Below, piece after piece: positions 2,111-42,938 of a stretch of 50,090 bases of DNA; positions within the stretch are counted from its first letter, which is position 1; each line of letters opens with the position of its first letter. The notes beneath the pieces were generated by a model, which saw only the letters and a program-made list of their open reading frames with translations, was not told the DNA's origin and ran no database searches. The stretch is from Deltaproteobacteria bacterium (GTDB lineage Bacteria > Desulfobacterota > JAJRXV01), in the NCBI GenBank assembly GCA_024275075.1, contig JAJRZU010000050.1, positions 1 through 50,090 on the forward strand, read 5' to 3'. Made by a program: the position numbers and the translations under genes.

Positions 2111-3652
<1,542 letters not shown>

Positions 3653-7866: not shown

Positions 7867-7872
7867 TGTCAA

Positions 7873-9525: not shown

Positions 9526-9545
9526 AAGAAAAGGGGGATTTTATT

Positions 9546-10079: not shown

Positions 10080-10132
10080 CAGCGTCAAAAAAGGGGGTAT
10101 CTCTTTTAAATAACTTAATATGAGGGGTTTAT

Positions 10133-11116: not shown

Positions 11117-11117
11117 A

Positions 11118-11219
11118 GTGAACTGCCATGCGGCAGGCTGTCAGGGAATCAGGTTTAAAATCTCGCAGCGGGCTGTGGGGAATGAAATCCGCAGAAAAAA
11201 ACAGGGCGCCCTGTTCAAG
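11118..11219 (+). repeat. Hairpin repeat family A, diverged double-stem copy
   Basis: AGTGAACTGCCATGCGGCAGGCTGTCAGGGAATC...CTCGCAGCGGGCTGTGGGGAATGAAATCCGCAGAAAAAAACAGGGCGCCCTGTTCAA. Confidence 0.75.
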
Positions 11220-11948
11220 TGTTTGATATTGTTCCTATTCATTTTGTCGGCAACCGCCTGTCATGCCGAAGTAAAACCTGACAGTTCAAACGTAGTAAAC
11301 GATGTCTCAGAGCTTAAAGACCTCTATGAAACAATAATTCCGGTCGGTTCATACGCACCAAGCTTCAAATTAAAGGACCTGGCCGGCAGGGTTTGGGATG
11401 CAGAAACCTTTTTAAAGAAACAAGTCACTATTCTCTACTTCTGGTCGGCTTTCTGTCCGTATTGTAAAGAATCGTTACCAAAGCTTAACAAACTGAATGA
11501 AAAATATAGGCAAAAAGGGTTAAAGGTCCTGGCCATAAACCTTGACGGTCGGGATTTCTCCAATGCCATTATATCTTTTTTGACTGATAGTAAAATAAAG
11601 CTTACCGTTCCTTTAGATGAACTGTATGAGCAGAAGTTCTTTACCGCCGGTGACCCGTACGGTGTAAACAAGACGCCTACGATATTTTTGGTCGATAAAA
11701 GCGGGAAGATTATATATGAAGCTGAAGTCGATATAGATTACCCGTTCTTAGAGAAATTGATACAGGAGAACACAAAGAACGTAAAGCAGAAGGTAATGAT
11801 AATAGTGATCGCTTTTGTTATTTTGATTCTCTTATCTATTATCGTCTTTATTTTCTTTATACGACCTAACATGATCCAGAATAAAATAATTGATGACCTT
11901 AAAAGGAGAACGCATGATGAGATTAAAAATGAGAGCAGTAGTTCTTAG
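11175..11948 (+). CDS. TlpA-family redoxin with C-terminal TM anchor (start uncertain: GTG 11175 or TTG 11223)
   Basis: APSFKLKDLAG, YFWSAFCPYC, TPTIFLVDKSG; hydrophobic C-terminal helix. Confidence 0.8.
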   Translation: MGNEIRRKKQGALFKCLILFLFILSATACHAEVKPDSSNVVNDVSELKDLYETIIPVGSYAPSFKLKDLAGRVWDAETFLKKQVTILYFWSAFCPYCKESLPKLNKLNEKYRQKGLKVLAINLDGRDFSNAIISFLTDSKIKLTVPLDELYEQKFFTAGDPYGVNKTPTIFLVDKSGKIIYEAEVDIDYPFLEKLIQENTKNVKQKVMIIVIAFVILILLSIIVFIFFIRPNMIQNKIIDDLKRRTHDEIKNESSSS

Positions 11949-12447
11949 TATTGTCGCAGTTCTTTTGGTATTTTCTTTTGCACCGAATTCTTCTTTTGCG
12001 ATTTGTATGAAGAAGGGTGACGTGGCGCCTGAGTTTGTATTAAGTGATATAGACGGTAATATAGTGAAACTATCTGATTATAGAGGTAAAGTCGTTCTCT
12101 TGACTTTCTGGGCTACATGGTGCGCGAAGTGCTGGGAAGAGATAGATTTCATTCAGACATCCCTTGAAAAAACTGAAGACCTCGCTATCATTCTCATCAA
12201 TATGGAGACCAGGTCACTCTCTGAGGCGCACCTGAAAAAGATAAAGACCACAGTCAGAGAGCTGGACATCAAGTTCCCGGTACTCCTTGACCTGAAACTC
12301 AAGGCATATAAAGATTATTGCATATCTTCGCTGCCATCTACCGCTATTGTTGATAGAGAGGGTATCATCCAGTTTGCCGGCCCTCATTTCTATAAAGCGT
12401 ACAGGGAGAAGATAAACAATGTTATCAAAGAGTTAAGCGCAAAATAG
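11914..12447 (+). CDS. TlpA/ResA-family thiol-disulfide oxidoreductase (paralogue of 9546)
   Basis: RBS AGGAGA; GDVAPEFVL, LSDYRGKVVLLTFWATWCAKC. Confidence 0.9.
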   Translation: MMRLKMRAVVLSIVAVLLVFSFAPNSSFAICMKKGDVAPEFVLSDIDGNIVKLSDYRGKVVLLTFWATWCAKCWEEIDFIQTSLEKTEDLAIILINMETRSLSEAHLKKIKTTVRELDIKFPVLLDLKLKAYKDYCISSLPSTAIVDREGIIQFAGPHFYKAYREKINNVIKELSAK

Positions 12448-24343: not shown

Positions 24344-25732
24344 TTACCCTACATCATTTAGTTTTCTTGCCCGAAACCCTACGCCTAACGTCTGGTGCGC
24401 TATCTTTTCACACGCCAGCACATCGATCCCGGGCATATCAACAACAGTCACAGTCACACAAGGGATCACTTCTTTCGCCCGCAGGATAAAACTCTTTACC
24501 CCATTATACGCTTCTTTCCCAAAAATGGAATGACAAAATTTATCGTATTTTTCTTCACTCTCAGCATTCAGGCTAATCGAGATCATATCGACAATGCCTT
24601 TTAGTGACGGTAAAATGTTCCTCTTATGGATCATGTTACCCTGACCGTTCGTGTTTATCCTGACCTTACCGCCCTTTTGTTTCACATACTTGGCTATTTC
24701 AATAACATTCTTTAGTTTTATCAGCGGCTCACCGTAACCGCAGAAAACGACCTCATCATACTTTGACGGATCACCTATGAGCTTAATGACATCATCAACA
24801 GAAGGTTCGTTATCCAGTTTCAGGTTATGCCCCTTTACCACGAAAGATCGTGACCTTGCGCAAAAAGAGCAGTCATTTGTGCAATCATTCGTCAAGTTAA
24901 CATACAAGGAGTTCCTGATCTTGTATACTATTTCAGCATCAATTTCAGCGGCATCCTCTTTTTTTTTTGCACCAAATAGGGAATGAAAATTCCTTGCCGT
25001 TATCCTCGCGACATCCTCTACGCTCAAGCCTTTTATCTTAGCGATAAACTTCGCCACCTCTTTGACATAACAAGGTTCGTTCCTTTTGCCGCGAAACGGT
25101 ACGGGTGTCAGGTACGGCGCGTCGGTTTCTATTAGTATAATATCAGTTGAGATATTTTTCAAGGCTTCAACTTGTTTATAAGAATTTTTATAGGTGATCG
25201 AGCACGAGAACGAGATGTGAAACCCCAAGTCGATAAACTTCTTCGCGTGTTCAGAATCCGAAGAGAAGCAGTGGATCACCCCGCCCTTTTTGATCTTCCC
25301 CTTCTTCTTCAGGAAAATCTCATAACATTCTTCATAAGCGTCCCTTATGTGGACGATAAGCGGCAGGGCAAGCTCATCGGCCAGATCTATTTGAGATATG
25401 AAATGTTCGAGCTGAAGATCCTTCGGTGAGTAATTTTTGAAAAAATCAAGCCCGATCTCACCGTAAGCCGCTACATCATACTTCTTTACAAGCGCAGTCA
25501 GGTTCTTATACGTCGCGGGTGTCACAGTCTTGACATCGTGCGGGTGGATACCGACGCTCGCGCGCAGAAAGTCGTGCTGGAGGGCGAGCTTCACGCCAGA
25601 TGCGGAATCCTTCTCATTAGACCCGACAAGCATGATATTGTCTATGCCTTCACTGACCGATCTTATAAGGACAGCGTCAAGATCCTTCTTATAGTGAGGC
25701 AGCTGCAAATGAGCGTGAGAATCGACAAACAT
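24344..25732 (-). CDS. tatD: TatD DNase fused to a TatD-associated radical SAM domain
   Basis: DSHAH, GEIGLD and ETDAPY motifs; C-terminal LYVNLTNDCTNDCSFC and EVVFCGYGEP. Confidence 0.92.
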   Translation of the reverse strand: MFVDSHAHLQLPHYKKDLDAVLIRSVSEGIDNIMLVGSNEKDSASGVKLALQHDFLRASVGIHPHDVKTVTPATYKNLTALVKKYDVAAYGEIGLDFFKNYSPKDLQLEHFISQIDLADELALPLIVHIRDAYEECYEIFLKKKGKIKKGGVIHCFSSDSEHAKKFIDLGFHISFSCSITYKNSYKQVEALKNISTDIILIETDAPYLTPVPFRGKRNEPCYVKEVAKFIAKIKGLSVEDVARITARNFHSLFGAKKKEDAAEIDAEIVYKIRNSLYVNLTNDCTNDCSFCARSRSFVVKGHNLKLDNEPSVDDVIKLIGDPSKYDEVVFCGYGEPLIKLKNVIEIAKYVKQKGGKVRINTNGQGNMIHKRNILPSLKGIVDMISISLNAESEEKYDKFCHSIFGKEAYNGVKSFILRAKEVIPCVTVTVVDMPGIDVLACEKIAHQTLGVGFRARKLNDVG

Positions 25733-25733
25733 A

Positions 25734-27278
25734 TTACTCCCTCTTTTGCTCAATTCTCGGGAAGAGTACCTCAGGCTTATCTATCTTTGTGCCTGATTCT
25801 ATCCCGCCAAAATTACTGCTGTATTTCAGGTTAATATCCGACATGTCGTAATTTGAGTTAAGATGCTCTAATATCTTCACCGCGGATTCTGGTATGAACG
25901 GATAGATGAAAAGCGCGATCACGCGGATGCAGTCAAGCGCGGCATAGAGCACCGTCCCTAATCTGCCGGCTTTCTTCGGCTCCTTGGCCAGGCTCCATGG
26001 CGCCATATCATCGATATATTTATTGATCGCCGAAATAAATTCAAATATAGATATCAAAGCCTTGTTCATTGCAAGGGCATCCATGTGAATCTCTAACTGG
26101 AGATAGACTTCCTCCTTCTTCGCTATGAGCGCTTTCTCGCTCTGTGTGATCTCCGATACTTTTGGTATGACCCTGTCAAAGTACTTTACGACCATAGAGC
26201 ATACGCGGCTGAACAGGTTCCCCAGATCGTTCGCCAGGTCACTGTTTATTCTATGAATCAGGGCATGTTTGGAGAAGTCGCCGTCAAGTCCGAATGGTAC
26301 CTCCCGAAGCAGGAAATACCTTATCTGATCCACACCATAAGTCTGAACCAGCATATTCGGGTCTACCGCGTTTCGCAGCGACTTGCTCATCTTCTTCCCC
26401 TCAACAGTCCACCAGCCGTGCGCGAAGACCCTCTTTGGCGGCTCGATGCCGGCGGCAAAAAGGAACGTAGTCCAGTACACGGCGTGGAACCTGAGGATAT
26501 CCTTACCGATAACGTGCACATCCGCAGGCCAGTACTTGTTGAACATCCTGTCATCGGCCCTGTAACCGATACCTGAGAGGTAGTTCAGCAAGGCGTCGAA
26601 CCAGACATAAACGACGTGCTTGTCGTTCCCGGGAACGGGTACGCCCCAGGAAAATGTGGTCCTGCTTATGCTAAGATCCCTAAGCCCCTCTTTGATAAAG
26701 CTCAATATCTCGTTACGCCTTGATGCCGGTGCGATGAAGTCAGGATTGTCCTGAATATACTGCGAGAGCCTGTCCTGATATTTCGACATCCTAAAGAAAT
26801 AGCTCTCCTCTTTGAGCTTGTGCGGGTCACGGTTGCAGTCCGGGCATTTGCCGTCCGCCAACTGCTTTTCCGTCCAGAATGTCTCACACGGCGTACAGTA
26901 CCAGTCCTCATATTCACCAAGGTAGATATCACCGGCATCTAACACCTTTTTGAAGATATCCTGCACCACTTGCTTATGCCTGTCCTGAGACGTTCTGATA
27001 AAATCGTTGTTAGAGATATTCAGCTTCTCCCACAACTGCTGGTACCTTTTGACGACCCTGTCGGCAAGCTCTATCGGTGCCTCACCGTTAGCTTTCGCGG
27101 CGTTCTCCACCTTCTGGCCATGCTCATCGGCACCGGTCAGGAAGAACACATTGCACCCCATCATCCGCTTATAGCGCGCCAAAGCATCGCAGGCGATCGT
27201 AGTATACGCGTGCCCGATGTGCGGGACATCGTTTACATAGTATATCGGCGTTGTGATATAAAACTTTTTCGTCATCAA
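25734..27278 (-). CDS. metG: Methionine--tRNA ligase (short form)
   Basis: ITTPIYYVN, HIGH, KMSKS and YVWFDAL motifs. Confidence 0.98.
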   Translation of the reverse strand: MMTKKFYITTPIYYVNDVPHIGHAYTTIACDALARYKRMMGCNVFFLTGADEHGQKVENAAKANGEAPIELADRVVKRYQQLWEKLNISNNDFIRTSQDRHKQVVQDIFKKVLDAGDIYLGEYEDWYCTPCETFWTEKQLADGKCPDCNRDPHKLKEESYFFRMSKYQDRLSQYIQDNPDFIAPASRRNEILSFIKEGLRDLSISRTTFSWGVPVPGNDKHVVYVWFDALLNYLSGIGYRADDRMFNKYWPADVHVIGKDILRFHAVYWTTFLFAAGIEPPKRVFAHGWWTVEGKKMSKSLRNAVDPNMLVQTYGVDQIRYFLLREVPFGLDGDFSKHALIHRINSDLANDLGNLFSRVCSMVVKYFDRVIPKVSEITQSEKALIAKKEEVYLQLEIHMDALAMNKALISIFEFISAINKYIDDMAPWSLAKEPKKAGRLGTVLYAALDCIRVIALFIYPFIPESAVKILEHLNSNYDMSDINLKYSSNFGGIESGTKIDKPEVLFPRIEQKRE

Positions 27279-29836: not shown

Positions 29837-30133
29837 CTAATCTCCGCTTTCTTCCTGCAATAACAAAAGGATTTCATAAGCATCTTCGTGAGATATCTCT
29901 ATCTTCGCGCCCTGCGGGTTCTGCTTGCTTAAAGACACCATCCGCTTCACGATATTCTCCCAATCAGCTTTTGTATACTTCTTTTTGTATATCCTGTCTG
30001 AGAAGTGGCATTTGCTGCAACGTCGGTTTAATAACTCCTTGGCCTTAGCCAGCCTTTCAGCTTTGTTTTTACATGATATAGTCGTGACACTCATGATAAA
30101 TATTAATGCCATGTAAATAATAAATTTCTTCAT
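29837..30133 (-). CDS. Small monoheme cytochrome c lipoprotein
   Basis: Lipobox TISC; CSKCH; WENIVKRM; RBS GAGGGGGAG. Confidence 0.75.
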   Translation of the reverse strand: MKKFIIYMALIFIMSVTTISCKNKAERLAKAKELLNRRCSKCHFSDRIYKKKYTKADWENIVKRMVSLSKQNPQGAKIEISHEDAYEILLLLQEESGD

Positions 30134-30158
30134 CGGCTCTCCCCCTCTTTTTTTATTA

Positions 30159-30187
30159 CGTATATCATTTAAATCATGAACTGTCAA
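30159..30187 (-). promoter_or_regulatory. Sigma70-like promoter for the cytochrome c-plsC-holB-metG operon
   Basis: Minus strand TTGACA-17 nt-TATACG with an extended TG. Confidence 0.55.
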
Positions 30188-30292: not shown

Positions 30293-31345
30293 TCACTGCG
30301 TCAATAGTCTTATGACTTCACCTGTGATCTTATCCAAAGCTACGAGCTTTTGCGCCCCGCCATTCTTAAAAGCTTCGTTCGGCATCCCAAATACAATCGA
30401 TGACGCTTCATCCTGGGCGACAGTACCGGCGCCGGCCTCTCTCATAGCGAGGATACCGTCAGAACCGTCATGCCCCATACCAGTAAGTATGACCCCGACA
30501 GCGTTTGCACCGGCATTTTCCGCCACGGATCTCATCATCACGTCAACGGACGGGCAATAACCGCTGACCGGCTGACCGGCGTTACACGTTACTTTGTAAC
30601 TGCCACCTATGCGCCTGAGAGTCAAGTGCTTTTGCCCGGGGGCGACAAGTATCCTGCCAGGGATGACTTCATCACCACTCTCGGCCTCCTTCGCGTCCAT
30701 CGCGCAGATATCGTTAAGCCGCTCCGCGAACATCCTCGTGAACCCCGCGGGCATGTGCTGTACAACGATAACGCCCGGCGTGTTCGCAGGGAACCCTGCG
30801 ACTACCCTCTTGATAGCTTCGGTGCCGCCGGTAGATGCCCCGATCGCGATTATCTGCACTTTTGATTTACCTATATCATCATTATTGCCTTTATGAGACA
30901 AAACATCCTTGGCGCCGTTTATGCTTTTCCAGTGAGTCACGTTTGCAGTGGATGCAATCTTCACTTTCGCGCGCAACTCCTTGATCATCGCCGCCAGCCC
31001 CTGCGGTACATTCGCCAACGGTTTGGAGATAAAATCGACAGCGCCCGCCTCGAGAGCGTCAAGCGTTACGCTTTTACCTTTTTGAGTGAGTGAGCTGACC
31101 ATCACAACCGGTATCGGGAACTGCGGCATGAGCCGTCTTAGAAACTCAACGCCATTCATTCTGGGCATCTCGACATCGAGCGTGAGGACGTCCGGCCTGT
31201 ATTTTATTATCTTATCGCGGGCAACGTAAGGGTCTGGCGCGGTGGCGACCACCTGTATGTCAGGATCCTTGGACAGGCCGTTGGCAAGGATCGTGCGTAC
31301 TAACGACGAATCATCAACGACTATTACGCGGATCGGTTTGTTCAT
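30293..31345 (-). CDS. cheB: Chemotaxis methylesterase/response regulator
   Basis: Receiver domain (LDVEMP) plus GASTGG, QHMP and GMGHDG. Confidence 0.96.
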   Translation of the reverse strand: MNKPIRVIVVDDSSLVRTILANGLSKDPDIQVVATAPDPYVARDKIIKYRPDVLTLDVEMPRMNGVEFLRRLMPQFPIPVVMVSSLTQKGKSVTLDALEAGAVDFISKPLANVPQGLAAMIKELRAKVKIASTANVTHWKSINGAKDVLSHKGNNDDIGKSKVQIIAIGASTGGTEAIKRVVAGFPANTPGVIVVQHMPAGFTRMFAERLNDICAMDAKEAESGDEVIPGRILVAPGQKHLTLRRIGGSYKVTCNAGQPVSGYCPSVDVMMRSVAENAGANAVGVILTGMGHDGSDGILAMREAGAGTVAQDEASSIVFGMPNEAFKNGGAQKLVALDKITGEVIRLLTQ

Positions 31346-32247
31346 TTTATAACCTTTTGTAGAGAGCCGGTCCTTTGGTAGACCGCCGGTTTAATATAAC
31401 AATACGGGCATCTATCCCTCGGCAGGCTCTCTGAATGCCCGATAAAAAGATAGCCGTCTTGCGCGGTCTGTTTAAAAAACCTGTAGATAAGTTTTTCGCG
31501 GGTCGGCGCGTCAAAGTAGATCATGACATTCCGGCAAAAGATTATGTGAAAAGATTGTCTGAACGGGAAAGTCCTGTTCATAAGGTTGAAGTGACGAAAA
31601 GTGACCTCTTTCTTTACACATTCCTTTACCGCCCACTGGTCGCCGCTTTGATGAATAAAATATTTCTTGCGTAAAACCTCAGGCACCAGGTTCACCTGCT
31701 CGTCCGTATACACCCCTGATTTCGCCAGACTCAGCGCGTGAGATGAGATATCGGTCGCGAGTATCCCCGCATTCCACGATACATATCTTTCACTGAAATA
31801 TTCAAGCAACAGCATGGCGAGCATATACGGCTCCTCACCGGATGAGCAACCGGCGCACCAGATTCTTATATCATTTGATTTTTGCCGCCTTAGTCGCTGG
31901 ACAATCACCGGCAGGGCGGTATTTACAAAATAATCGAAGTGGGCTCTTTCTCTGTTAAAAAAAGTGTAATTCGTTGAGATAAAGTTTGCCAGCTCCGCTA
32001 AAGCTTTCCCTGACTTGTCCGCTATTATGCTGTCATAGTATTGTCTAAAGGATTCATACCCCTCGGCGCGAAGCAGTTTTTGTAACCGGCTGACAATAAA
32101 GGTACGTTTCTTTTCAGACAGGTTTATACCGAAACGCTCATAGATAAGGGAGCGCATTAAGTGAAACTCTTTCTCTGATATCGTCATACTCCCTAACGAG
32201 ACCTGGATTCCCATATCTTTTTTACAAACCTGTCCTGAATTAATCAT
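31342..32247 (-). CDS. cheR: Chemotaxis methyltransferase
   Basis: TFFNRE, IWCAGCSSGEEPY, ATDIS, FCRNVMIYF and GHSE motifs; start at ATG 32247 with a GGGGA RBS. Confidence 0.95.
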   Translation of the reverse strand: MINSGQVCKKDMGIQVSLGSMTISEKEFHLMRSLIYERFGINLSEKKRTFIVSRLQKLLRAEGYESFRQYYDSIIADKSGKALAELANFISTNYTFFNRERAHFDYFVNTALPVIVQRLRRQKSNDIRIWCAGCSSGEEPYMLAMLLLEYFSERYVSWNAGILATDISSHALSLAKSGVYTDEQVNLVPEVLRKKYFIHQSGDQWAVKECVKKEVTFRHFNLMNRTFPFRQSFHIIFCRNVMIYFDAPTREKLIYRFFKQTAQDGYLFIGHSESLPRDRCPYCYIKPAVYQRTGSLQKVIK

Positions 32248-32258
32248 TCGTCCCCTGA

Positions 32259-32300
32259 AGGGCATGTTGCCCAATCCTTCGCTATCTGGCAAAAGTCCCT
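32259..32300. mobile_element. Family B minimal copy (ends only, 42 bp)
   Basis: AGGGCATGTTGCCCAAT-CCTTCGCT-ATCTGGCAAAAGTCCCT. Confidence 0.65.
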
Positions 32301-32430: not shown

Positions 32431-34863
32431 TTAGTACCTGCCAAACTCTTTGTCATCAAGCGCGATTACGTCACTTGGCTTAACCGGTGCGGCGCCTGCC
32501 GTCGTCCCATGCGGCTCATCATGAGAGATAGCGGCTAAGTGCCTGCCGCCACTGCCGCCACTGCCTCCCACCGCCACCTGACGCTGCTCCATAGCGTGTG
32601 TCTCGATCGCTTTTTGAGCAGTCAGCTTAAATGCGTTTAACATTGTCTGCATCTGCGTAGCCTGCCCTGATAACTGTATTGCGGCGGACGCGCTCTCTTC
32701 CGCGTTAGCCGTATTCTGCTGCGTGACCTGCTCGATCTGACCTAACCCCTGGTTGATCTGGGTTATCCCCTGCGACTGTTCTGTAGAAGCCGCGGCGATC
32801 TCGGCGACGAGGTCTGACACTTTTGTGACGCTATCCACTATCTCTTCTAAAGCGCCTGCCGTCTTCGTTACGATTTCACTGCCGGAATCAACTTTTTTCA
32901 CCGAACCCTCGATCAGCTCGGCGGTCTCTTTCGCCGCTTTCGCGCTTCTCGCGGCAAGGTTTCTCACCTCCTCGGCGACAACGGCGAAACCCTTACCGTG
33001 TTTACCCGCCCGGGCGGCCTCAACAGCGGCGTTCAAAGCAAGCAGGTTAGTCTGGAACGCAATCTCATCGATGACTTTGATTATCTTTGATATGTTCTTG
33101 CTCGAAGCGTTGATCTCTTCCATAGCGCTTATCATCTGCTTCATCTGCGCATTACCGGTATCCGCGACCTCACTCGCCTGTGACGCGAGCTGGTTCGCCT
33201 GGGTAGCGTTCTCGGCGTTCTGTTTGGTCTGGGAGCCGATCTGGGTCATCGCACTCGTTATCTGCTCAAGCGAGCTCGCCTGCTCTGTCGCGCCCTGAGA
33301 GAGCGACTGGCTCGAATCAGACACCTGTTGAGAGCCATAAGTGATCTGGTCAGACGCCGAAGATACCTGCCCTAACGTATCGTTCAACGAGTCCAGCGAA
33401 CTGCTTATCGCCACCTTGATCAACGCGTGATCACCTTTATAGTTACCGGTTACCTTTTTGGTCAGGTCACCTTTCGCCATCTCTTCTAACACTCCTTTCG
33501 CCTCGGAGATCGGCTCTAAGATAGCGTCAAGCATCGTGTTGATTCCGCGTATCATCTCTCCCCAGCTGCCTTTGAAAGCGGCTGCGTTGCCGCGGGCGTC
33601 AAGTTTCCCCTCCTGCCCTGCCAGAATAAGGGAAGTGGTCTCCTCGAGCAGGCCGGTCATCGCGTCTATACATGAGTTCAGGCTGTCCTTTATCTCGTTG
33701 AAATCCCCTTTGTATTCCTCGGAGATCTTCGGTGGGATTATACCGTTACCGATTTGGCTGACATAATCAGAAGTAACGTTGATCGGTTTGACAAACGCCT
33801 CCACAGTCTCGTTCATACCTTTGACGATACCCTGGAACTCGAAATTTATCTTATCTACATCGGCGCGGACGCTCAACTCTCCAGATTCCACGGCGTCTGT
33901 AAGGCGCTTGCTCTCGTCAAGCAGGTTCGTTATGTTCGTCATTATTCCTTTGGTTATCCCAAAGAGCAGTAGCGCGATGATTACAGTCACAATGATAAGC
34001 GTCGTCACAAAGGAGCGCGTAACAGCCGCGAGCGCTTTTACCTGATATTTGTCGTTTGCAGAGCTTAATGCGTCTACCTTCTCCATCAGCTCATCGAGCA
34101 GCGGAGCTATGGAATGCGCGGAAGCACGAAAAATCTCCGTCTCCGCAACGACTTTTTTAGACGCGGCTACCATGCTTTGGAAGATAGCGGTATATTTATC
34201 TATGCCATCTTTAAATATCTGTTTCGCTTCATCAGAAAGCTTTGAGTTATCCACTATATCCTTAAAGACCGCCAGTTCTGCACCCATTTTCTTTACATAC
34301 TTGTCATCCCCTCTTAAGAGAAAGTCCTTTTCGTGGCGGCGCATCATCAATAATGAGTTGTACAAAGCAGTCTCACCTTTATGGTCTTTAAATATGGCCT
34401 CCACCTTGTGAGCGATGTCCCTTAATTTACCTTGTTCCCCGCTCTTATACTCCAGCCCGAGCTCTTCTTCTAATACTACAACGTTATTAAAACTCGTCTC
34501 ATAAGACTTAACGGCATTATTAAGCTTTGCTACAATGGCCTTTATCTGCGGCTCTTTGGATAACGTATCCAACTTGCCTGTTTTTTCATATATCGCCGCT
34601 ATGGTCTTGGCCTGTTTGTCAAGATACTTCTTATCCTTTCGCATCAAGAAGTCCTTCTCGTTACGCCTCGCGGCAAGAGATTCAATGCCCAGCTCAAGGG
34701 TCAGCGCATCCATGGCGGTCACTCTTTTATCTTCAAGCTTCGCCGTTTTCTGGATGTTTCGCCCGGAGTTGTAAACCAGCCCGATAACAATAAAGCCCAC
34801 CACCAACACTACTGCTATTAGCACCATCTTGTGTAATATTTTCATATTTTCATAAAACTTCAT
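32431..34863 (-). CDS. Methyl-accepting chemotaxis protein with a helical-bimodular-like sensor and multiple HAMP domains
   Basis: TM1; duplicated RR(N/H)EKDFL periplasmic modules; TM2; repeated HAMP units; [20 protein letters not shown]. Confidence 0.93.
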
Positions 34864-34959: not shown

Positions 34960-35511
34960 TTATCCAGCCGTCGCTCGTTTCTTCTCCTTCGCCGGCGCCG
35001 CTCCTTTTAACATCTCCAGCTCTTCGTCGTAAAGTAGCCTGCTCACGTCAAGGATTATTTTTACATCCTCTTCCATCTTTCCCATACCTTTGATGAATCT
35101 GCCGCGGTCACCCCTGCCAGTCCTTGGCGGCGGTTCCACCTGGTCTTCAGGTATGTTCGCGACCTCGCTCACCTCGTCAACGACAAGCCCGACCGCCATA
35201 TCATTGATGTTCACGACAATAATGCATGTGCGGTCATCATACTCTTTGGGCTCTAACCTGAACCGGGTGCGCACATCTATCACCGGTATGATCTTCCCGC
35301 GAAGATTGATCACCCCCCTGACGAAGTCCGGCATATCAGGCACCTTCGTGATCCTCTGGATACCTATGATCTCGGTGACGAACCGGATCTCAATACCGTA
35401 ATCTTCCTTCGCAAGATGGAAGGTCAAATATTTGTCCTTCTGGGCATCCTCTTCATCTTCATCGTACAGTTCATCGTCTAACTTCTCTACGATACCTTTG
35501 TTCTGCGCCAT
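34960..35511 (-). CDS. cheW: Chemotaxis coupling protein
   Basis: YLTFHL, GVINLRGKIIPVID and GLVVDEV motifs. Confidence 0.96.
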   Translation of the reverse strand: MAQNKGIVEKLDDELYDEDEEDAQKDKYLTFHLAKEDYGIEIRFVTEIIGIQRITKVPDMPDFVRGVINLRGKIIPVIDVRTRFRLEPKEYDDRTCIIVVNINDMAVGLVVDEVSEVANIPEDQVEPPPRTGRGDRGRFIKGMGKMEEDVKIILDVSRLLYDEELEMLKGAAPAKEKKRATAG

Positions 35512-35512
35512 A

Positions 35513-38101
35513 CTACTCCCCTCCTTTCATAACAGTCCTGTTATTATCCTCCTGCTTCTCAGCCAGATAGACAAGAGTCCCTGCATCAAGTATCAGGCTC
35601 ACCTCACCGTTCCCTAAGATAGTGCAGCCGGAAACGCCTTTGACATTACCGATATAGCTTGATAAACCTTTTATCACCGTTTGCTGCTGACCAAGAATCT
35701 CATCGACAAAGAGACACGCCTTCTTTTCATGAGCTTCAAAAACTATCAATATCCCGTCTTTGAATTTATGATAATCCGGTTCTGTCCTTAGCACCTCATG
35801 CAGCCGGAGTATCGGGATGAACTCTTCCCGCAGGCGCACTATCTCCTGCCCGTCCGGCGAGACGATGATCTTGTTAGAATCCTGACGAAACGTCTCTTGA
35901 ATGGAGAGGATCGGCAGGATGCACTTGCTCTTACCGACGCGAACTAACATCCCCTCGATGATCGCAAGTGTAAGCGGTATGCGCAAAGTGACCTTTGTGC
36001 CGACCCCTTGTCTGCTCTGGATATCTATCTTCCCTTGTATCTTTTTCAGGTTCTGCTTGACCACGTCCATACCGACGCCTCTGCCGGAGATATCCGTCAC
36101 CTTATCAGCGGTGGAGAAGCCAGGCTGAAATACCAACGAAAAGACCTGCTTGTCGCTTAGCTCTGAGCCGTCCCCCTCGATCAGGCCCTTGGATATCGCT
36201 TTTTCAATTATCTTTTGACGGTCCAACCCCTTACCGTCATCCTCAATAATAATCCACACCTCTCCTTCTTCATGCCTCGCCGTAAGCCTTACAGTGCCTT
36301 CATCAGGCTTACCCGCCTTGCGCCGCTCCTTTTGCGGTTCTATTCCGTGATCGATGCTGTTGCGGATTAAGTGGACAAGCGGGTCTGTGATCGTCTCGAT
36401 GACAGATTTATCCACTTCGGTCTCCTCACCGGAGAGCTTCAGGACGACCCTCTTTTTTGATTTGGCGCCAAGGTCATGCACAAGGCGAATCATCCGGCGG
36501 AAGAGCCCTGATACCGGTATCATACGGATCACCATCGCCATCTCCTGCAGCTCACGCACTATCTTATCCATCTGCTGGGCGGCTTTGTTGAAATTGTCCA
36601 GTTGGAGATCGTGTAAATCGTTGTTATTGACAACGACCTTCTCGGCAATGACCAGCTCACCGATCAGATTTATCAGGGAATCGAGTTTTGTCAGGTTGAC
36701 CCGTATATCCTGCCGTTTCAGGACATCTTTCGGCGCCACTTTGACTTTCTTTTCAATGACAGGGGCGACAGTCATCATGCTTCTCGCCTCTTTTTGCTTT
36801 TTCAACGCTTCTTGCACCTGTCGCTTGGTAACAACGCCCTTCTTGACTAAAATATCGCCAAGCGGTTTTCGCTGTTCCTCTAACGCAATCTGTATCTCTT
36901 TGGGAGACACGCTCCCCTGCTCGATCAACAGGTCACCTAAGAACAGCGACCCTTTCTCCTTGCCCGGAGTAACCAGCCACCCCTTTGGCAACAAGCTTTC
37001 GATAAGCTCAAGATAAAGGGGCAGGTTACTTATTGCACCGGCGCCCTCGTTTGATATGTCAAACATAGCGGTTCTCAGCACATCGACAAGCTCTAACATA
37101 ACTTTTGCCGCTTTGTGCTTATCGACGTTGGCTTTCTCCTTTACCGCGTCCATAATAGTCTCTATCTTATTGCTGAGCATCTCTAAATCGACATAACCGA
37201 AGAAGCCGCAATTACCCTTGAAGCTGTGGATGTTGCGTAACAAATCGCCGAGGATCTCCATATCATCGATTGAATTGATCCATTTAAGGAGACCCTGCTC
37301 AAATGCCTGCAAAAGCTCGTCCGCCTCCTGAACAAAATGTTCCACCATCTGTGTCGTTATAAGGAACTCTTTTTCAGACGACGTATTTTCCTGCATGGAG
37401 TCAGCTGTCCGCTCTTCTTCAGGCTCCTTCGCACCATCTTTGGTAAGGTAGGTTTTGCGCCCTGCGTCGAGTGCGTCATTTGCCTGCTTAATAGCCTCTG
37501 TCAGATTATCGCGCACGAGCCTGGCATCCTCCGCCATACCTTTGTCAGAGAGATTATCCTGCAAATAATCCAGGGCGTCTTTTGTAAAATCACATGTGGT
37601 GCACAGAAGATCAACATGTTGGGGCCTAATCCAGATACCGCCTGAGCGGACGAGGTCAAGCAGGTTTTCCGCGGCATGAGCGACGCCACAGATATTTTCT
37701 AATTCCAGGAAGCCGGCGCTCCCTTTCATCGAGTGGAACAATCTGAAGATCGCGTTAAGTGTCTGGGAGTCACCGTTTATCAATTGAAATACTTTGCAAT
37801 TCAGGCAATCCTGTCTTGTAGCCCCCCCGATACATGACCCTAAGGCGCTTTCAACATAACCGACATGTAACCAGCACGGAAATTCTATCTCCTTTCCATA
37901 CCTTACGCAGATATCGTTCCCACATTCCATCGTTTCCCAGCAATTTACATGACCGCAGCTTTGCCCGAGCTCAATGACCGCGGGTTCTAACTGCTCGACC
38001 ATCTCTCTGGTCTCTTGTATAAATTCCTGGATTATCTCATATTGTTCACTTTTAATATCATAACTCACAATAACACTTAACCTTTTGCACTCTCCCCCCA
38101 C
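35513..38101 (-). CDS. cheA: Chemotaxis histidine kinase with two Hpt domains (start uncertain within about 35 nt)
   Basis: FHSMKG and IHSFKG Hpt motifs; HLIRNSIDHG, DDGKG, GFSTA and GRGVGMDVV; C-terminal CheW-like domain. Confidence 0.95.
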   Translation of the reverse strand: MGGECKRLSVIVSYDIKSEQYEIIQEFIQETREMVEQLEPAVIELGQSCGHVNCWETMECGNDICVRYGKEIEFPCWLHVGYVESALGSCIGGATRQDCLNCKVFQLINGDSQTLNAIFRLFHSMKGSAGFLELENICGVAHAAENLLDLVRSGGIWIRPQHVDLLCTTCDFTKDALDYLQDNLSDKGMAEDARLVRDNLTEAIKQANDALDAGRKTYLTKDGAKEPEEERTADSMQENTSSEKEFLITTQMVEHFVQEADELLQAFEQGLLKWINSIDDMEILGDLLRNIHSFKGNCGFFGYVDLEMLSNKIETIMDAVKEKANVDKHKAAKVMLELVDVLRTAMFDISNEGAGAISNLPLYLELIESLLPKGWLVTPGKEKGSLFLGDLLIEQGSVSPKEIQIALEEQRKPLGDILVKKGVVTKRQVQEALKKQKEARSMMTVAPVIEKKVKVAPKDVLKRQDIRVNLTKLDSLINLIGELVIAEKVVVNNNDLHDLQLDNFNKAAQQMDKIVRELQEMAMVIRMIPVSGLFRRMIRLVHDLGAKSKKRVVLKLSGEETEVDKSVIETITDPLVHLIRNSIDHGIEPQKERRKAGKPDEGTVRLTARHEEGEVWIIIEDDGKGLDRQKIIEKAISKGLIEGDGSELSDKQVFSLVFQPGFSTADKVTDISGRGVGMDVVKQNLKKIQGKIDIQSRQGVGTKVTLRIPLTLAIIEGMLVRVGKSKCILPILSIQETFRQDSNKIIVSPDGQEIVRLREEFIPILRLHEVLRTEPDYHKFKDGILIVFEAHEKKACLFVDEILGQQQTVIKGLSSYIGNVKGVSGCTILGNGEVSLILDAGTLVYLAEKQEDNNRTVMKGGE

Positions 38102-38258: not shown

Positions 38259-39806
38259 TTACTTATTTGCCTGCTTCAAGCCCTTTACATTTTCGTAATA
38301 AAGAAATTCATCATTGTCTTTTCCCTGCGGGACAAAATCATCTATAATTGGGAAGGAATCCAAAGCCTTGGCGATGTTTGCCCGCAAGAAAGAGTCTACC
38401 CATTTAAATATGTTATTCTCTTTGATCGAGCGCCGCATCCGCCGCATCCTTGTTTTTTGCTCTTCCCTGTCCATCGTGAATGCCCGGTATATAGTCTCCG
38501 CTACACCCTCTATGTCATAAGGGTTGACTAACAACGCGTTTCGTTGCAGCTGCGCGGCGACCCCGGCAAACTCGCTTAGGATAAGAGCGCCATGCTCCTC
38601 GACGCTCGAGGCGCAGTATTCCTTAGCGACGAGGTTCATACCATCTTTCAATGGTGTGACAAGCGCGATCTCACACGTGCGGTAATATGCGAGCAGCTCT
38701 GCCCGGCTAACGCTGCGAAAGATATAGTGTATGGGTACCCAGCCCGAACGCGTGAACTGGCCGTTTATCTCACCCACCAGCCGCTCGATCTCTATCTTCA
38801 GGTCATAGTACTCTGGTATATCCTCGCGGCTTGGTACGACTATCTGTATCAACGTGGCTCTGTTTCGCATCTCAGGGAATCGTATCAAAGCATTCCTGAA
38901 CGCTTCTAATTTATCTGGTATCCCCTTCGTATAGTCCAGGCGGTCGACGCCAAGGATAAGGCAGCAGTGCGGGAGGTCTTCGTGCAGGTACCACGCCCTC
39001 TCAGAGACCTCCTTCGTCTCCGCCATGTTCGCGAATTCATTATAATCGATGCTGATCGGGAAAGTACCGATCCGGGATTCCCTCTTACCGATGCGGCACC
39101 TGATAACCTGCCCTTTACCATGGATAACAGCGTCCTTTAGAAGCATACGAACGCACTGGACAAAATTCCTTCTGTCTCGCAGCGTCTGGAACCCGATGAG
39201 GTCATATTCCAGCAGTGCGCGCAGTATCTGAAACCGCCACGGCAGTTTGACAAAAATATCAAGAGAGGGGAAAGGTATATGCAAAAAGAAACCGGTCTTG
39301 TTATTTACATTCATCTGCTTAAGCTCGCTCGCGACGTTCATCAGGTGATAATCATGCACCCAGATATAATCATCGTTCTTAGTGTTTTTCGCGATCGCCT
39401 CGGCAAATTTGAGGTTGACAGCTTTGTAGGAGTTCCAGTATTTTGGCGCGAAATTGCACCGGGTCTGGAGATCATGGAATAGTGGCCAGATTATCTCGTT
39501 TGAAAACCCGTAATAGAAATTCTTGATCTCGCTTTCTGACAGGTTTACGGGCTTAAGTGTATATCCTGACTGGCCTGCCGCGCTCTTAAGAAGGGTTGAC
39601 AAATCAATACTTCTGGTCTCTTCCTCGGTCACGCCTGTCCAGCCTATCCATACGCCGCCACGGTTTTTCAGTACCGGTGCGAGCGCAGTTACAAGTCCGC
39701 CGGAACCAGGCTCGACATTCCACTCATCCGCACCTTTGTTCAATACGATAGGTAGCCTGTTTGAAACGATTACCAGTCGCTTTTTATGAGTATCTTCAGC
39801 CGACAT
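38259..39806 (-). CDS. otsA: Trehalose-6-phosphate synthase
   Basis: SNRLP, GGLV, WVHDYHL, LGVDRLDYTKG and DGMNLVAKE motifs. Confidence 0.96.
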   Translation of the reverse strand: MSAEDTHKKRLVIVSNRLPIVLNKGADEWNVEPGSGGLVTALAPVLKNRGGVWIGWTGVTEEETRSIDLSTLLKSAAGQSGYTLKPVNLSESEIKNFYYGFSNEIIWPLFHDLQTRCNFAPKYWNSYKAVNLKFAEAIAKNTKNDDYIWVHDYHLMNVASELKQMNVNNKTGFFLHIPFPSLDIFVKLPWRFQILRALLEYDLIGFQTLRDRRNFVQCVRMLLKDAVIHGKGQVIRCRIGKRESRIGTFPISIDYNEFANMAETKEVSERAWYLHEDLPHCCLILGVDRLDYTKGIPDKLEAFRNALIRFPEMRNRATLIQIVVPSREDIPEYYDLKIEIERLVGEINGQFTRSGWVPIHYIFRSVSRAELLAYYRTCEIALVTPLKDGMNLVAKEYCASSVEEHGALILSEFAGVAAQLQRNALLVNPYDIEGVAETIYRAFTMDREEQKTRMRRMRRSIKENNIFKWVDSFLRANIAKALDSFPIIDDFVPQGKDNDEFLYYENVKGLKQANK

Positions 39807-39814
39807 CTTTCCCC

Positions 39815-40882
39815 CTAAGCAACGGTTGCTGAATCTTTCTTTATATACAATGTCTGGGTCGGGTAGGCGAACTGAATACCCTCATCATTGAACTTGCGCA
39901 TTATCGCGACGTTTATCGCCTGCTGGATATCCATATAGACATTGTAATCAGGACTTAATACAATGTAAACGACCTCAAAGACCAGCGCAAAGTCACCGTA
40001 TTCCTTAAAATGCGCTCTGTCAAAACGGGTATCCGACTGCTTCTGGACGACCTCCTTTATCATGAGAGGTATCGCTTCCACCTTCTCTGCCGGTGTATCA
40101 TAAGTCATCCCCAGGGTAAATACGACGCGGCGCTCGAGCATCCGCTTGTAGTTCCGTACCCTGCTTTGCAAAAGATCGTTGTTCGAGAAGATTACCTGTT
40201 CGCCTGACAGGCTTCGGATGCGGGTTGTCTTCAAACCGATATGCTCGACACTCCCCAGATAATCCCCGACGATGATGAAGTCACCGATAACAAAAGGCTT
40301 GTCGAGCACGATAGACAAGGACGCGAGCAGATCGCCGAGTATGTTCTGGACGGCAAGCGCGACGGCTATGCCCCCGACGCCAAGGCCGGCGATAAGGGCG
40401 GTGACGTCTATCCCCAAGTTATCCAATACTAACAGAAATGTCACTACCCAAAGCGTTACCTTCGCGATGAAGCTAAGTGCGGAAATGGTAGTCGCGTTCG
40501 ATGTATCATGCTCTAATTTTCGTTTGACATAGCTCTTGCTCCAGATCGAGATGAACGCACTGCCCCAGAGAGCCGACTGGAGTATCAGCGCGATCACAGC
40601 CGCCGTGTTGATAATGATTGAAGCCGCCGCGGTCAGGTTCAGGACAAACGTACCGGCATATATTGAGAGTATTAAAAGGAAAATAAACTTCGTCTTTTTG
40701 AAAAGGTCTACGATGGTATCATCCATGGTGGTCTTTGTCTTTTTTGCGAACTGCGCCAACCGGTCAGTGATAATCTTCTTTATTATCTCTAATAAAATGA
40801 CGCCGAAAAAGGTGATTATTACGGCTAATAGCCATTTTGCCAGGGTGTTGTTATAGAATACTTCGTTTAATATCTCAATCAG
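39815..40882 (-). CDS. mscS: MscS-family mechanosensitive channel (probable CTG start)
   Basis: GLGVGGIAVALAVQ, DKPFVIGD and FAYPT motifs. The open frame extends upstream of TTG 40759 to a CTG that overlaps the otsB TGA. Confidence 0.88.
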   Translation of the reverse strand: MIEILNEVFYNNTLAKWLLAVIITFFGVILLEIIKKIITDRLAQFAKKTKTTMDDTIVDLFKKTKFIFLLILSIYAGTFVLNLTAAASIIINTAAVIALILQSALWGSAFISIWSKSYVKRKLEHDTSNATTISALSFIAKVTLWVVTFLLVLDNLGIDVTALIAGLGVGGIAVALAVQNILGDLLASLSIVLDKPFVIGDFIIVGDYLGSVEHIGLKTTRIRSLSGEQVIFSNNDLLQSRVRNYKRMLERRVVFTLGMTYDTPAEKVEAIPLMIKEVVQKQSDTRFDRAHFKEYGDFALVFEVVYIVLSPDYNVYMDIQQAINVAIMRKFNDEGIQFAYPTQTLYIKKDSATVA

Positions 40883-41670
40883 TTATCTCCACAAGCTCTC
40901 TTCCAGCGTAATAGGAACTCTAAAAGTTCTTCGGGGGGCTCGATCCAGAGATCCGCCGCTGTCGCCCGCAGCCCGCCCCTCACAAGGACGCCAAGCCCCC
41001 TTCGCTTGATCGCCCTGAAAGCGTCCTCATCGGTCAGATCATCCCCCAGATATGCCGATACAGTATCTTCACCCATCTCAGCAAGGATTGCGTCTATCGC
41101 GCCGCCTTTATTCCCGCCTGATGTGCGAAGCTCAATACCACCATCAAATTCGTGTAAAGTCAGATTACTCCCTTTTGCGAGAAAAGTCCATTCTTTTATG
41201 ACTTTTTCGCGTATCTCATTGATAAGATTAGCAGATAACCCTCTTAGGTGTATCGCGCGCGAGGCGGGTTTCTTCTCATAATGATCCGCCAATCGCTCGA
41301 AAAGTACCCAGTTATCCGCTTTTATTAGAATGTCAGATGTGATCTCGTCTATCTTTGGCGCAAAGTAAGCGCCGTCTGGCATCATGCGCTCTGAGCCGTG
41401 CGAGCCCCAAATCTCCGGCAGCTTCTTCAGGCCGAGCAGGGGAATCAGGTCACTCACCGCGCGTCCGCTGATCAAAACTAACCGCGCAGCGCCGGTGCTG
41501 ATAATATCATCTATGATCTCTCGTACGCCTTCGTACGGATACGCCTTGTCGCGCTCATCGCGAAACGGCGCGAGAGTACCGTCGTAATCAAGCAGTAACG
41601 CCCGATTCTCAGCGTTTTTTACTTCGTCAAAGAAATCATCTAAATCAAAACCAGACTCAAGAATTTTCAT
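40879..41670 (-). CDS. otsB: Trehalose-6-phosphate phosphatase
   Basis: LDYDGTL, SGR, GSHG and GDDLTDEDAF HAD motifs. Confidence 0.93.
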   Translation of the reverse strand: MKILESGFDLDDFFDEVKNAENRALLLDYDGTLAPFRDERDKAYPYEGVREIIDDIISTGAARLVLISGRAVSDLIPLLGLKKLPEIWGSHGSERMMPDGAYFAPKIDEITSDILIKADNWVLFERLADHYEKKPASRAIHLRGLSANLINEIREKVIKEWTFLAKGSNLTLHEFDGGIELRTSGGNKGGAIDAILAEMGEDTVSAYLGDDLTDEDAFRAIKRRGLGVLVRGGLRATAADLWIEPPEELLEFLLRWKRACGDN

Positions 41671-41696
41671 AATCTATATATAAATTTCCGGTAAGA

Positions 41697-42938
41697 TCAA
41701 CCTAACACGATCCGGTCTTCCGCGCCGTGTATCAGCCCGACCATAAGGGTCAGGTGCTCCCGTAACTGCCGCGTGAGCAGGAAATTCTCTCTCACAAAAT
41801 CACGCGCCTTCTTACCCATCTCCTTTAATTTGTTGCGGTGATGGAGCAGGTAGCGTATCCGTAGCGCGGCGCCCTCTGGCGTGTTCACAAGGAAACCGGT
41901 ATGGTGGTCAATAACCTGCAAACGGATGCCGCCGGTATTACCACCTATTACGGGTTTACTTTTCCACATCGCCTCGGTGACCGTCAGGCCGAACCCTTCC
42001 TTTATCGATTTCTGGAGCACTATGTCAGATGCGCGCTGCAACGCGTTGATAGTTGTGTGCGCATCCGCGGGCAGTAAAAGCACATGGATATCAGGGTCGC
42101 CCGAAGCGGCGCCCCGCACCTCTTTTAATACCGCTTCTCCCTCGGGGTCGTCTGTCGCTTCGCCACCGGCAAGCACTAACTGCAAAGTCGGTATGAATCT
42201 TTTAGTCAACTTGTAAGACTGTATGACACCGATCGGATCCTTAAATTTATCAAAACGCGAGACCTGCAATATAATCGGGCGGTCAGGGTCAAGGTCAAAA
42301 TCAGGGAAAACGGCTCTGACCTCTTTCGCGCTTATCGACTTGTTCTTGTCGCTTAACGGGTCGATACTTGGTGGGATCAGGTACTGGGGGTGCGACAACG
42401 CCTGCGAAAACACGGCCAGCGAAAAGATGCTCGCGTCATATTCCGAGACAAAATCCCGTAAATATTTCCATACCTGCCGGTTCGGGTGGCTGCCGTCTAT
42501 GTGACACCGCCAGATCCACCTGCCTTTCCGGTTCGGGCAGAACTTAAGCACCGCCGCGGGTTGAGGGTCGTGTATGAATACGAAATCAGCTTCTTCGAGC
42601 ATCTCCCTGAACTCATCTGCGAAATCATTGTTGGTCTGCTCATAGACCTTCAGTAAATTCTGTGGTATCTCTACATGACTGCCCTGAAGCGCGTTATGGA
42701 AATACTTTGTACACTGATAAAAGTCCGATCTGCCCAAAATCACTTCCCACTTCACGTCCAGCCCCAACTCCTGCTGCAACGGTACAAGCTTCGTCAGTAT
42801 CTCGGCAACGCCGCCTCCTATGCGGGTCGAGTTGATATGAAGCACCTTCATACCTTTTAATGGCACAGATAGCTGCCTGAGATGATCGATTACATCTTCA
42901 CCGGCAACTTTCGCGTACGATTCTAATAATGTGGTCAC
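41697..42938 (-). CDS. treT: Trehalose glycosyltransferring synthase (GT4)
   Basis: NSTRIGGGVAE, FHNALQG, IHDPQP, WRCHID, SRFDKFKDP and EGFGLTVTEAMWK motifs. Confidence 0.88.
   Translation of the reverse strand: MTTLLESYAKVAGEDVIDHLRQLSVPLKGMKVLHINSTRIGGGVAEILTKLVPLQQELGLDVKWEVILGRSDFYQCTKYFHNALQGSHVEIPQNLLKVYEQTNNDFADEFREMLEEADFVFIHDPQPAAVLKFCPNRKGRWIWRCHIDGSHPNRQVWKYLRDFVSEYDASIFSLAVFSQALSHPQYLIPPSIDPLSDKNKSISAKEVRAVFPDFDLDPDRPIILQVSRFDKFKDPIGVIQSYKLTKRFIPTLQLVLAGGEATDDPEGEAVLKEVRGAASGDPDIHVLLLPADAHTTINALQRASDIVLQKSIKEGFGLTVTEAMWKSKPVIGGNTGGIRLQVIDHHTGFLVNTPEGAALRIRYLLHHRNKLKEMGKKARDFVRENFLLTRQLREHLTLMVGLIHGAEDRIVLG

Follow-up and report, generated by a model that had tools for sequence, protein, structure and literature searches.

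A probable relative of the two-CW domain inserted in the first phosphotransfer domain of a deltaproteobacterial CheA kinase

Introduction

The histidine kinase CheA is normally controlled externally, by receptors acting via CheW and the P5 domain of the kinase, and its P1 histidine phosphotransfer (Hpt) domain is regarded as a passive phosphate shuttle. We describe here a cheA gene whose first Hpt domain (Hpt1) is interrupted by a cysteine-rich insert. The gene is carried by contig JAJRZU010000050.1 of a Deltaproteobacteria bacterium (assembly GCA_024275075.1; Desulfobacterota, JAJRXV01), of which positions 1 to 50,090 were analysed; "the window" means this whole stretch of 50,090 nucleotides, and positions are given in it throughout. 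More than one Hpt domain before the kinase core, as found here, is also a feature of the Pseudomonas CheA homologue ChpA; to our knowledge, no multi-Hpt CheA homologue such as ChpA has a cysteine-rich domain inside an Hpt domain.

The closest described structures are canonical P1 domains, such as those of T. maritima (1tqg), Salmonella (1i5n) and E. coli (8c5v chain C). Like Hpt1 here they are four-helix bundles, in which helix B bears the phospho-acceptor His within an H-S-x-K-G motif and helix C bears an H/E pair. In this CheA, as in canonical CheA, P1 is followed by P3, P4 and P5. The present protein differs from the canonical one by about 58 residues in the loop between helices A and B, by a second Hpt domain and by a MshEN-like motif before P3. 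The insert itself resembles the two-CW domain of NCBIfam (NF045718): both have two CW dipeptides, a C-x4-C after the first of them, a CWLxxG core and a terminal CxxC-x-[VF]-[FY]. It departs from that domain by an extra N-terminal Cys, present in 99 of 112 homologues, and by a fifth Cys displaced by about 8 residues.

As to the genetic setting, a study of Desulfuromonas strains AOP6 and 2873T (PMC8235581) describes a beta-group-like che cluster, with cheC, cheD and cheX in addition, upstream of flagellar genes. Loci related to ours resemble this cluster as described, with an insert-bearing cheA, cheW, cheR, cheB, cheD, genes for an HDOD and a cheY-like REC protein, and cheX, and with flgB, flgC and fliE nearby. 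In PMC8235581 the term "Hpt" is absent and "cysteine" occurs only in the reference list. Literature searches that included passages of PMC8396549, PMC8235581, PMC2577667 and PMC5013675 did not find a CheA with a cysteine-rich domain inside an Hpt domain. CheA, Hpt and the two-CW domain are thus all known kinds, and it is their arrangement, a module nested in a phosphotransfer domain, that we did not find described.

Results and Discussion

The first Hpt domain of CheA is split by a cysteine-rich insert

The open reading frame (ORF) matches the Pfam families Hpt (twice), H-kinase_dim, HATPase_c and CheW-like, and the gene is therefore cheA, as had been proposed in a preliminary description made from the letters of the window alone. 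As written there, the protein reads ...EFIQETREMVEQLEPAVIELGQ-SCGHVNCWETMECGNDICVRYGKEIEFPCWLHVGYVESALGSCIGGATRQDCLNCKVFQ-LINGDSQTLNAIFRLFHSMKGS..., meaning that about 58 residues (SCGHVNCWE...CLNCKVFQ, amino acids 49-106) separate helix A (...EQLEPAVIELGQ) from the phospho-His helix (...LNAIFRLFHSMKG). They contain eight cysteines: C49, C60, C65 and C90, those of the two CW dipeptides (C54-W55 and C76-W77), and those of a terminal CxxC-x-x-F (C99, C102 and F105). The interval first noted, 37785-37957, runs from Cys49 to about Gln106 and is correct to within one or two bases.

When amino acids 1-200 were compared with Pfam, the Hpt profile matched over its positions 22-73 only, at amino acids 111-172, and helix A is therefore split off from the rest of the domain. 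The sequence and this split match both bear out the placement of an eight-Cys, two-CW-like insert between helix A and the phospho-His helix of the first Hpt domain. A profile of the N-terminus retrieved CheA P1 chains of the Protein Data Bank (PDB) with E-values of 2e-13 to 4e-11. Residues 29-107 of the E. coli P1 domain (8c5v_C) aligned to query positions 91-169 (52.5 bits), and residues 4-30 aligned weakly to query positions 6-32, the latter at −1.0 bits and given for register only, so that about 58 query positions have no counterpart in canonical P1. That the A-B loop is normally short, as had been assumed, follows from this alignment and from insert-less orthologues, in 29 of 32 of which the loop has 8 residues (for example GQNSDPET). 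The insert alone (75 amino acids) matched no Pfam family at E≤10.

The insert is conserved, and close orthologues lack precisely this module

A homologue search with amino acids 15-185 gave 448 proteins at E≤0.001, 120 of which were listed. Among these listed matches, to which the following counts of homologue clusters apply, the insert was present in 113 of 120, while the remaining seven (P0114-P0120) are close CheAs missing exactly the insert. In the 112 insert-bearing homologues other than the protein itself, seven of the cysteines were kept in 111-112 cases, both Trp in all 112 and the first Cys in 99; the length of the insert was identical in 109. The search for other insert-bearing CheAs that had been suggested was thus productive, and the absence of cysteine conservation that would have spoken against the proposal was not observed. 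The insert-less orthologues (P0114-P0120, and loci L075-L108) otherwise resemble the CheA of the window, with the two-Hpt layout, 62-65% identity over Hpt1, a cheA-cheW-cheR-cheB neighbourhood and an H...CxxC motif on helix D; what distinguishes them is the 8-residue loop in place of the module.

In a further comparison, 29 inserts encoded in the window, three genomes and 25 of 27 insert-bearing metagenome contigs were used. They aligned without gaps over 67 columns, in which C9, W10, C15, C20, C31, W32, L33, G36, C45, C54, C57, F60, N64 and G65 were invariant. Invariance of the Cys and Trp residues at about 45% overall identity indicates that the insert is under strong purifying selection.

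Named carriers are Geoalkalibacter subterraneus, G. halelectricus, Desulfuromonas versatilis, Geothermobacter ehrlichii, G. hydrogeniphilus and Trichloromonas acetexigens. Of 401 genomes sampled evenly across the phylum, four, the window's own included, had a full-length match; both genomes sampled from the class to which the window's genome belongs had an insert-bearing CheA. The window's genome encodes four CheA paralogues and FliM, and only the CheA of the window has the insert.

The insert is related to the two-CW domain

NF045718 was the one family matched by all 29 inserts at E≤1 (best E-value 5.5e-6). The insert scored 13.7, 11.5 and 19.3 bits against its model, the 11.5-bit match covering model positions 2-78 and the 19.3-bit match, obtained with a 67-amino-acid cut (E 0.0011), covering profile positions 2-78 of 80. 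These scores lie below the curated cut-off of 35 bits, and the insert is therefore not a called member of the family. When the 112 inserts were compared by hhalign with a set of 26 two-CW domains drawn from the phylum's genomes, the two profiles aligned over 57 columns with 96.5% probability and an E-value of 9.9e-10. Both CW dipeptides, the two Cys after the first of them, and the terminal CxxC were in register, and the fifth Cys of the family was shifted by about 8 residues. Six of the seven family cysteines, in a feature list read from the 26 members and not from a published definition, thus align in the insert; a regular expression (regex) also picked out a shifted fifth Cys in 8 of the 98 two-CW domains scored in the non-CheA proteins described next.

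The reverse comparison gave the same result. An insert profile run with HMMER over 1.84 billion representative proteins had 94 matches at E≤0.001, of which 7 were CheA N-termini or fragments and 87 were other proteins; 84 of these 87 matched NF045718 at E≤1e-4. In the 7 CheA-type matches helix A precedes the module and the phospho-His helix follows it wherever the fragment reaches that far, and only in this CheA group, among the 94 matches, is the module inside an Hpt domain. From the 29 family matches, the profile alignment and this retrieval we conclude that the insert is homologous to the two-CW domain. The two-CW pattern noted at the outset holds, therefore, as a sign of homology and falls short of family membership, with a score under the cut-off and one of seven cysteines displaced. 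The insert is very probably a divergent relative of the two-CW domain lodged inside a CheA P1 domain.

A search of genome contigs with the single N-terminal sequence gave one locus, a Thermodesulfovibrionales histidine kinase (L003:5962-7386, plus strand), which is not a CheA and was retained for comparison only. Its N-terminal short-form two-CW domain ends in CLNCKVFQ like the CheA insert and is 34% identical to it over 57 residues. The window's genome also has a stand-alone canonical two-CW gene (G000:C158:1673-1909, minus strand; L001:1501-1737) scoring 104 bits, with an in-frame TAA where relatives have the Glu of CGREPGG; judged from its relatives, the TAA reflects either a nonsense change or an error of sequencing.

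The Hpt bundle is predicted to close around the insert

We modelled amino acids 15-185 with AlphaFold2 from a 30-row alignment made of the window sequence and 29 parts of stored homologues. The model had a mean predicted local distance difference test score (pLDDT) of 86.9 and a predicted TM-score (pTM) of 0.82, with helices at model residues 4-34, 98-117, 121-138 and 146-170. The insert showed short helical turns only, its ten-residue blocks averaging pLDDT values of 68-87. The best Foldseek match was the T. maritima P1 domain 1tqg (TM-score 0.88 normalised to the target, root-mean-square deviation (rmsd) 2.0, E 5e-3), and VIA-align superposed model residues 4..168 on all 105 of the 105 residues of 1tqg_A with a Z-score of 18.3 and an rmsd of 1.2 Å. 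The predicted four-helix bundle therefore closes around the insert, which answers the structural question raised in the preliminary description. In the model, the module is predicted to emerge from one end of the bundle, the end that holds the C-D loop. His123, K126, H142 and E145 of Hpt1 are invariant with and without the insert, and to judge from these residues Hpt1 looks catalytically competent.

VIA-align of the N-terminal model over 48,161 chains gave helical bundles only and no insert-specific row. The ESM Atlas look-alikes were three unnamed clusters (scores 0.89-0.90) for which recognition was under the stated level, an uninformative result. The C-D loop (positions 41-45 after the start of helix B) was among the residues differing most between the insert-bearing and insert-less forms, in a comparison whose rows are kin to one another.

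Helix D of Hpt1 carries a His...C-x2-C motif of its own (H162, C167 and C170; positions 37592-37618, minus strand), kept in 103-105 of 105 insert-bearing and in 31 of 32 insert-less sequences. By helix order it is situated at the same end as the exit point of the insert from the bundle. It may form an additional metal or redox site, one that does not depend on the insert.

The insert is labile in the evolution of CheA

Trees were calculated on the P3-P5 core, so that the insert columns were excluded by construction. The rows were 30 diverse insert-bearing and the 7 insert-less homologues of the 120 listed, together with CheA ORFs of at least 640 amino acids from loci L074-L126; FastTree was run on 71 rows and IQ-TREE, in quick mode, on 70, the long-branch row L076 having been dropped. 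One row (L074) is cut at a contig end and carries part of the insert, and was counted accordingly. Fifteen distant insert-less CheAs fell outside a group of 55 (Shimodaira-Hasegawa-like approximate likelihood ratio test, SH-aLRT, 90), within which 31 insert-bearing and 24 insert-less rows were intermixed. The state of the insert needs 5 changes on the tree, at least 2 of them forced by branches with support of at least 95; for example, the insert-bearing Geoalkalibacter subterraneus protein P0004 is sister to 13 insert-less rows with a support of 96. One gain followed by several clean losses fits this pattern, on a backbone that is weak (SH-aLRT 81-93) and with a root that depends on the chosen outgroup. 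On these core trees the module behaves as evolutionarily labile and separable.

Related modules occupy signalling proteins

The 87 other proteins retrieved by the insert profile indicate the company that this type of module keeps. The domains found with it were HisKA (33), HATPase_c (31), GGDEF (20), PAS (19), HAMP (17), REC (13), sCache (10), GAF (5-7), MCPsignal (3) and HD of the HD-GYP type (3). The two-CW domain was internal in 54 proteins, N-terminal in 17 and the whole of a small stand-alone protein in 16, and it was in tandem in 11. These proteins matched 39 Pfam families, and the 25 commonest included no two-CW model. NF045718 itself was found in 109 of 301 genomes of the phylum, in 101 of them over the cut-off, and in none of 14 control genomes at E≤0.001. 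Judged by these architectures, the two-CW domain looks like a module that serves signalling proteins for input or transmission in the cytoplasm.

A possible cytoplasmic input to CheA

Seven fixed cysteines at fixed spacing in a segment with little secondary structure lead us to infer a metal-templated fold, and the pattern makes it probable that the insert binds metal. Whether it also has a sensing role we put at roughly even chances. With modest confidence we favour the reading in which the inserted two-CW module adds a cytoplasmic redox or metal input to CheA. According to this proposal, a divergent two-CW-type module of about 58-61 residues has been inserted as a complete domain into the loop between helix A and helix B of P1, and its seven cysteines would hold a metal centre in the form of Zn-thiolate sites or of an Fe-S cluster. 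Depending on whether this centre is oxidised, nitrosylated, demetallated or intact, the contact of Hpt1 with P4 or with the receiver domains of CheY and CheB would change, and the output of the kinase would report a redox or metal signal from the cytoplasm beside the receptor signal arriving via CheW and P5. A parallel route free of the module's control would run over the second, uninterrupted Hpt domain.

Several observations weigh against this proposal. The insert modelled alone, from the 29-sequence alignment, was poor (pLDDT 49.4, pTM 0.32), and the insert profile found nothing significant among PDB sequences, meaning that no solved structure is similar by sequence (best E 0.11). Experimental work on the two-CW domain was not found in literature searches. 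The insert does not reach the 35-bit cut-off of NF045718, and with its fifth Cys shifted the metal site may differ from that of the canonical domain; seven ligands, moreover, sit oddly with two Cys4 sites. Insert-less orthologues show that a kinase can work without the module, as would also be expected of a structural, non-sensing part. Finally, a full receptor pathway (CheW, chemoreceptor, CheR and CheB) is still encoded beside the insert-bearing cheA. For this last reason the preliminary description, in which the module would let the kinase be regulated independently of receptors, went too far: since the operon keeps these genes, "added input" is the fairer wording.

A bolder form of the proposal, which we regard as doubtful, makes P1 itself a receptor: an Fe-S or redox-active Zn-thiolate centre sensitive to O2, NO or iron would gate the phosphorylation of His123 or the transfer from it. 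Were this true, flagellar chemotaxis of these anaerobic metal-respirers would be tuned directly by intracellular redox state or iron without a dedicated chemoreceptor; with its second Hpt domain and its MshEN-like motif for cyclic di-GMP (c-di-GMP), this CheA would be a three-input integrator, and the changes of module state on the tree would mark lineages switching the input on or off.

The main rival to an added input, one that we consider unlikely, is a structural metal-binding knob, most simply with zinc, that senses nothing and stiffens P1 or docks a receiver, the HDOD protein of related clusters or another CheA domain. Structural zinc modules are typically small and rich in cysteine, with few regular secondary-structure elements, and short helical turns are all that the models show in the insert. 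The weak PDB sequence matches, a viral leader zinc finger (E 0.11), a RING domain (E 0.13) and the Fe-S small subunit of 4-hydroxyphenylacetate decarboxylase (E 3.2), are all Zn- or Fe-S-binding pieces, and the divergence between the two forms in the C-D loop, which shares its end of the bundle with the insert, fits a packing or docking surface. However, the two-CW family sits at sensory-input places in kinases, cyclases and chemoreceptors, sometimes in tandem, and the five changes of state on the tree, at least two of them well supported, are more usual for an accessory input; neither point is decisive.

Still less likely, indeed improbable, is a metal-free thiol/disulfide switch in which pairs of Cys would oxidise and reshape the loop beside helix B. 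The many conserved cysteines of the insert, a CxxC pair included, and the invariant CxxC on helix D at the same end of the bundle would suit such a switch. Yet seven invariant Cys at fixed spacing, accompanied by invariant Trp and Gly, are more typical of a metal-templated fold, and the helix D CxxC, being equally conserved in insert-less orthologues, is not tied to the module. As for a neutral or degenerate insertion, or an artefact of assembly or frame, to which the absence of the insert from most CheAs and the small number of full-length matches in the phylum might point, it is refuted for practical purposes by the conservation of the insert, which is in frame and free of stops in 113 clusters among the matches listed, in 27 metagenome contigs and in three further genomes, with its Cys and Trp invariant.

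If the added-input reading holds, a sensor-type domain within P1 would be a new control point inside a well studied kinase, and the CheA insert would give the first functional handle on the two-CW domain, which is widespread in signalling proteins of anaerobes. The question can be tested at the bench, because orthologues with the 8-residue loop are natural controls and cultured carriers exist.

Domain layout of CheA

The coordinates of the domains and of the neighbouring che genes are given in Table 1. The ORF list starts the gene at a GTG giving 862 residues; judged from homologues, the true start is likely the GTG at codon 12 (38068), giving 851 residues, because the phospho-His has index 110-111 in most homologues against 122 here.

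Table 1. Features of cheA and of the che genes downstream of it, in window positions.
Feature	Position	Strand	Basis
cheA ORF	35513..38101	minus	862 aa from GTG at 38101; ORF list
Hpt1 helix A (aa 18-48)	37958..38050	minus	AlphaFold2 helix 4-34 of the aa 15-185 segment, pLDDT 80-95; aligns with helix A of solved CheA P1 domains
Two-CW-like Cys-rich insert (aa 49-106): C49, C54-W55, C60, C65, C76-W77, C90, C99, C102, F105	37784..37957	minus	Sequence, conservation, relation to NF045718
Hpt1 helices B-D (aa 112-184)	37550..37768	minus	Pfam Hpt aa 111-172; PDB P1 matches; AlphaFold2 helices 98-117, 121-138, 146-170
Phospho-acceptor His123	37733-37735	minus	In FHSMKG of Hpt1; H142/E145 pair on helix C; H162...C167-x2-C170 on helix D
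Second Hpt domain (aa 251-339)	37085..37351	minus	Best Pfam Hpt stretch, profile 1-78 of 84; own H-S-x-K-G motif; no insert
MshEN-like c-di-GMP-binding motif pair (aa 388-436)	36794..36940	minus	NF053729, 52.6 bits, cut-off 38; two tandem 24-residue copies by regex
P3 dimerisation domain (aa 464-525)	36527..36712	minus	Pfam H-kinase_dim, 54 bits; same place in a search of genomes
P4 ATP-binding kinase domain (aa 573-711)	35969..36385	minus	Pfam HATPase_c, 66.8 bits
P5 CheW-like domain (aa 716-844)	35570..35956	minus	Pfam CheW, 81 bits
cheW	34960..35511	minus	Pfam CheW, 145 bits
Chemoreceptor (MCP) with HAMP array	32431..34863	minus	Pfam MCPsignal, HAMP_2 (twice); two hydrophobic stretches read by eye as transmembrane segments
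cheR	31342..32292	minus	Pfam CheR and CheR_N
cheB (REC and methylesterase)	30293..31345	minus	Pfam CheB_methylest and Response_reg

Over the whole protein Pfam Hpt scored 82.1 bits in two stretches, and P3, P4 and P5 follow in the expected order. No family of the CheY-binding P2 domain was among the Pfam matches at E≤1; P2 is missing from many CheAs. The NCBIfam CheA equivalog PRK10547 scored 422.8 bits, below its cut-off of 793, with a match confined to amino acids 425-851; by this comparison the N-terminal half of the protein is unlike the E. coli type.

The pair of MshEN-like motifs sits between the second Hpt domain and P3. The published MshEN motif starts with RLG, and the residue preceding LG is not Arg in either copy here. 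With a strict regular expression, at least one copy was found in 54 of 113 insert-bearing and in 3 of 7 insert-less homologues among the matches listed. The motif pair points to c-di-GMP as a possible input to this CheA. Fusions of MshEN with CheA are mentioned in PMC5013675.

Gene neighbourhood and other observations

The genes directly downstream of cheA are cheW, mcp, cheR and cheB. Genes for CheD, an HDOD protein, CheY and CheX are absent from the window, in which the chemoreceptor gene is present. In the sister genome (G001) the order treT-otsB-mscS-otsA-cheA-cheW-mcp-cheR is kept. At that locus (L127, G001:C245:10000-29000) no cheB match at E≤1e-5 followed cheR within the 19 kb examined, and the open frame of cheA has 709 amino acids, yet tblastn matches continue to residue 844; a frameshift or an assembly break is likely.

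Four annotated insert-bearing loci have the order cheA-(cheW)-cheR-cheB, with a divergent tetratricopeptide repeat gene upstream in all four. Two of them (L047 and L061) extend further, through cheD and genes for an HDOD and a REC protein; in L061, which also has cheX, flgB, flgC and fliE lie next to the tetratricopeptide repeat gene. A chemoreceptor gene directly upstream was considered as a mark of insert-less loci and dropped, since one of the two insert-less clades has such a gene and the other lacks it.

On the other side of cheA, treT, otsB, mscS and otsA (38259-42938, minus strand), a set of trehalose and osmotic-stress genes, lie directly upstream, 157 bases from the start of the ORF. 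Just after cheB, an ORF of 116 amino acids (29837-30187, minus strand) has a hydrophobic N-terminus, a CxxCH haem-binding motif and a weak Pfam match to cytochrome c-551 (E 4e-4, under the cut-off); from these features it may be a small c-type cytochrome closing the che operon.

Further away, a region on the plus strand (7255-12447) encodes a 550-amino-acid multihaem cytochrome with matches to cytochrome c554, c7 and MtrC/MtrF-like proteins, and then three AhpC/TSA-redoxin ORFs interspersed with a GAF-GGDEF gene. At 2111-3652 (plus strand) is a protein of 513 amino acids with four MopE-type putative copper-binding motifs (PF11617, 141 bits), and at 24344-25753 (minus strand) a single ORF joins a TatD-type DNase (amino acids 10-261) to a radical SAM domain (amino acids 285-443).

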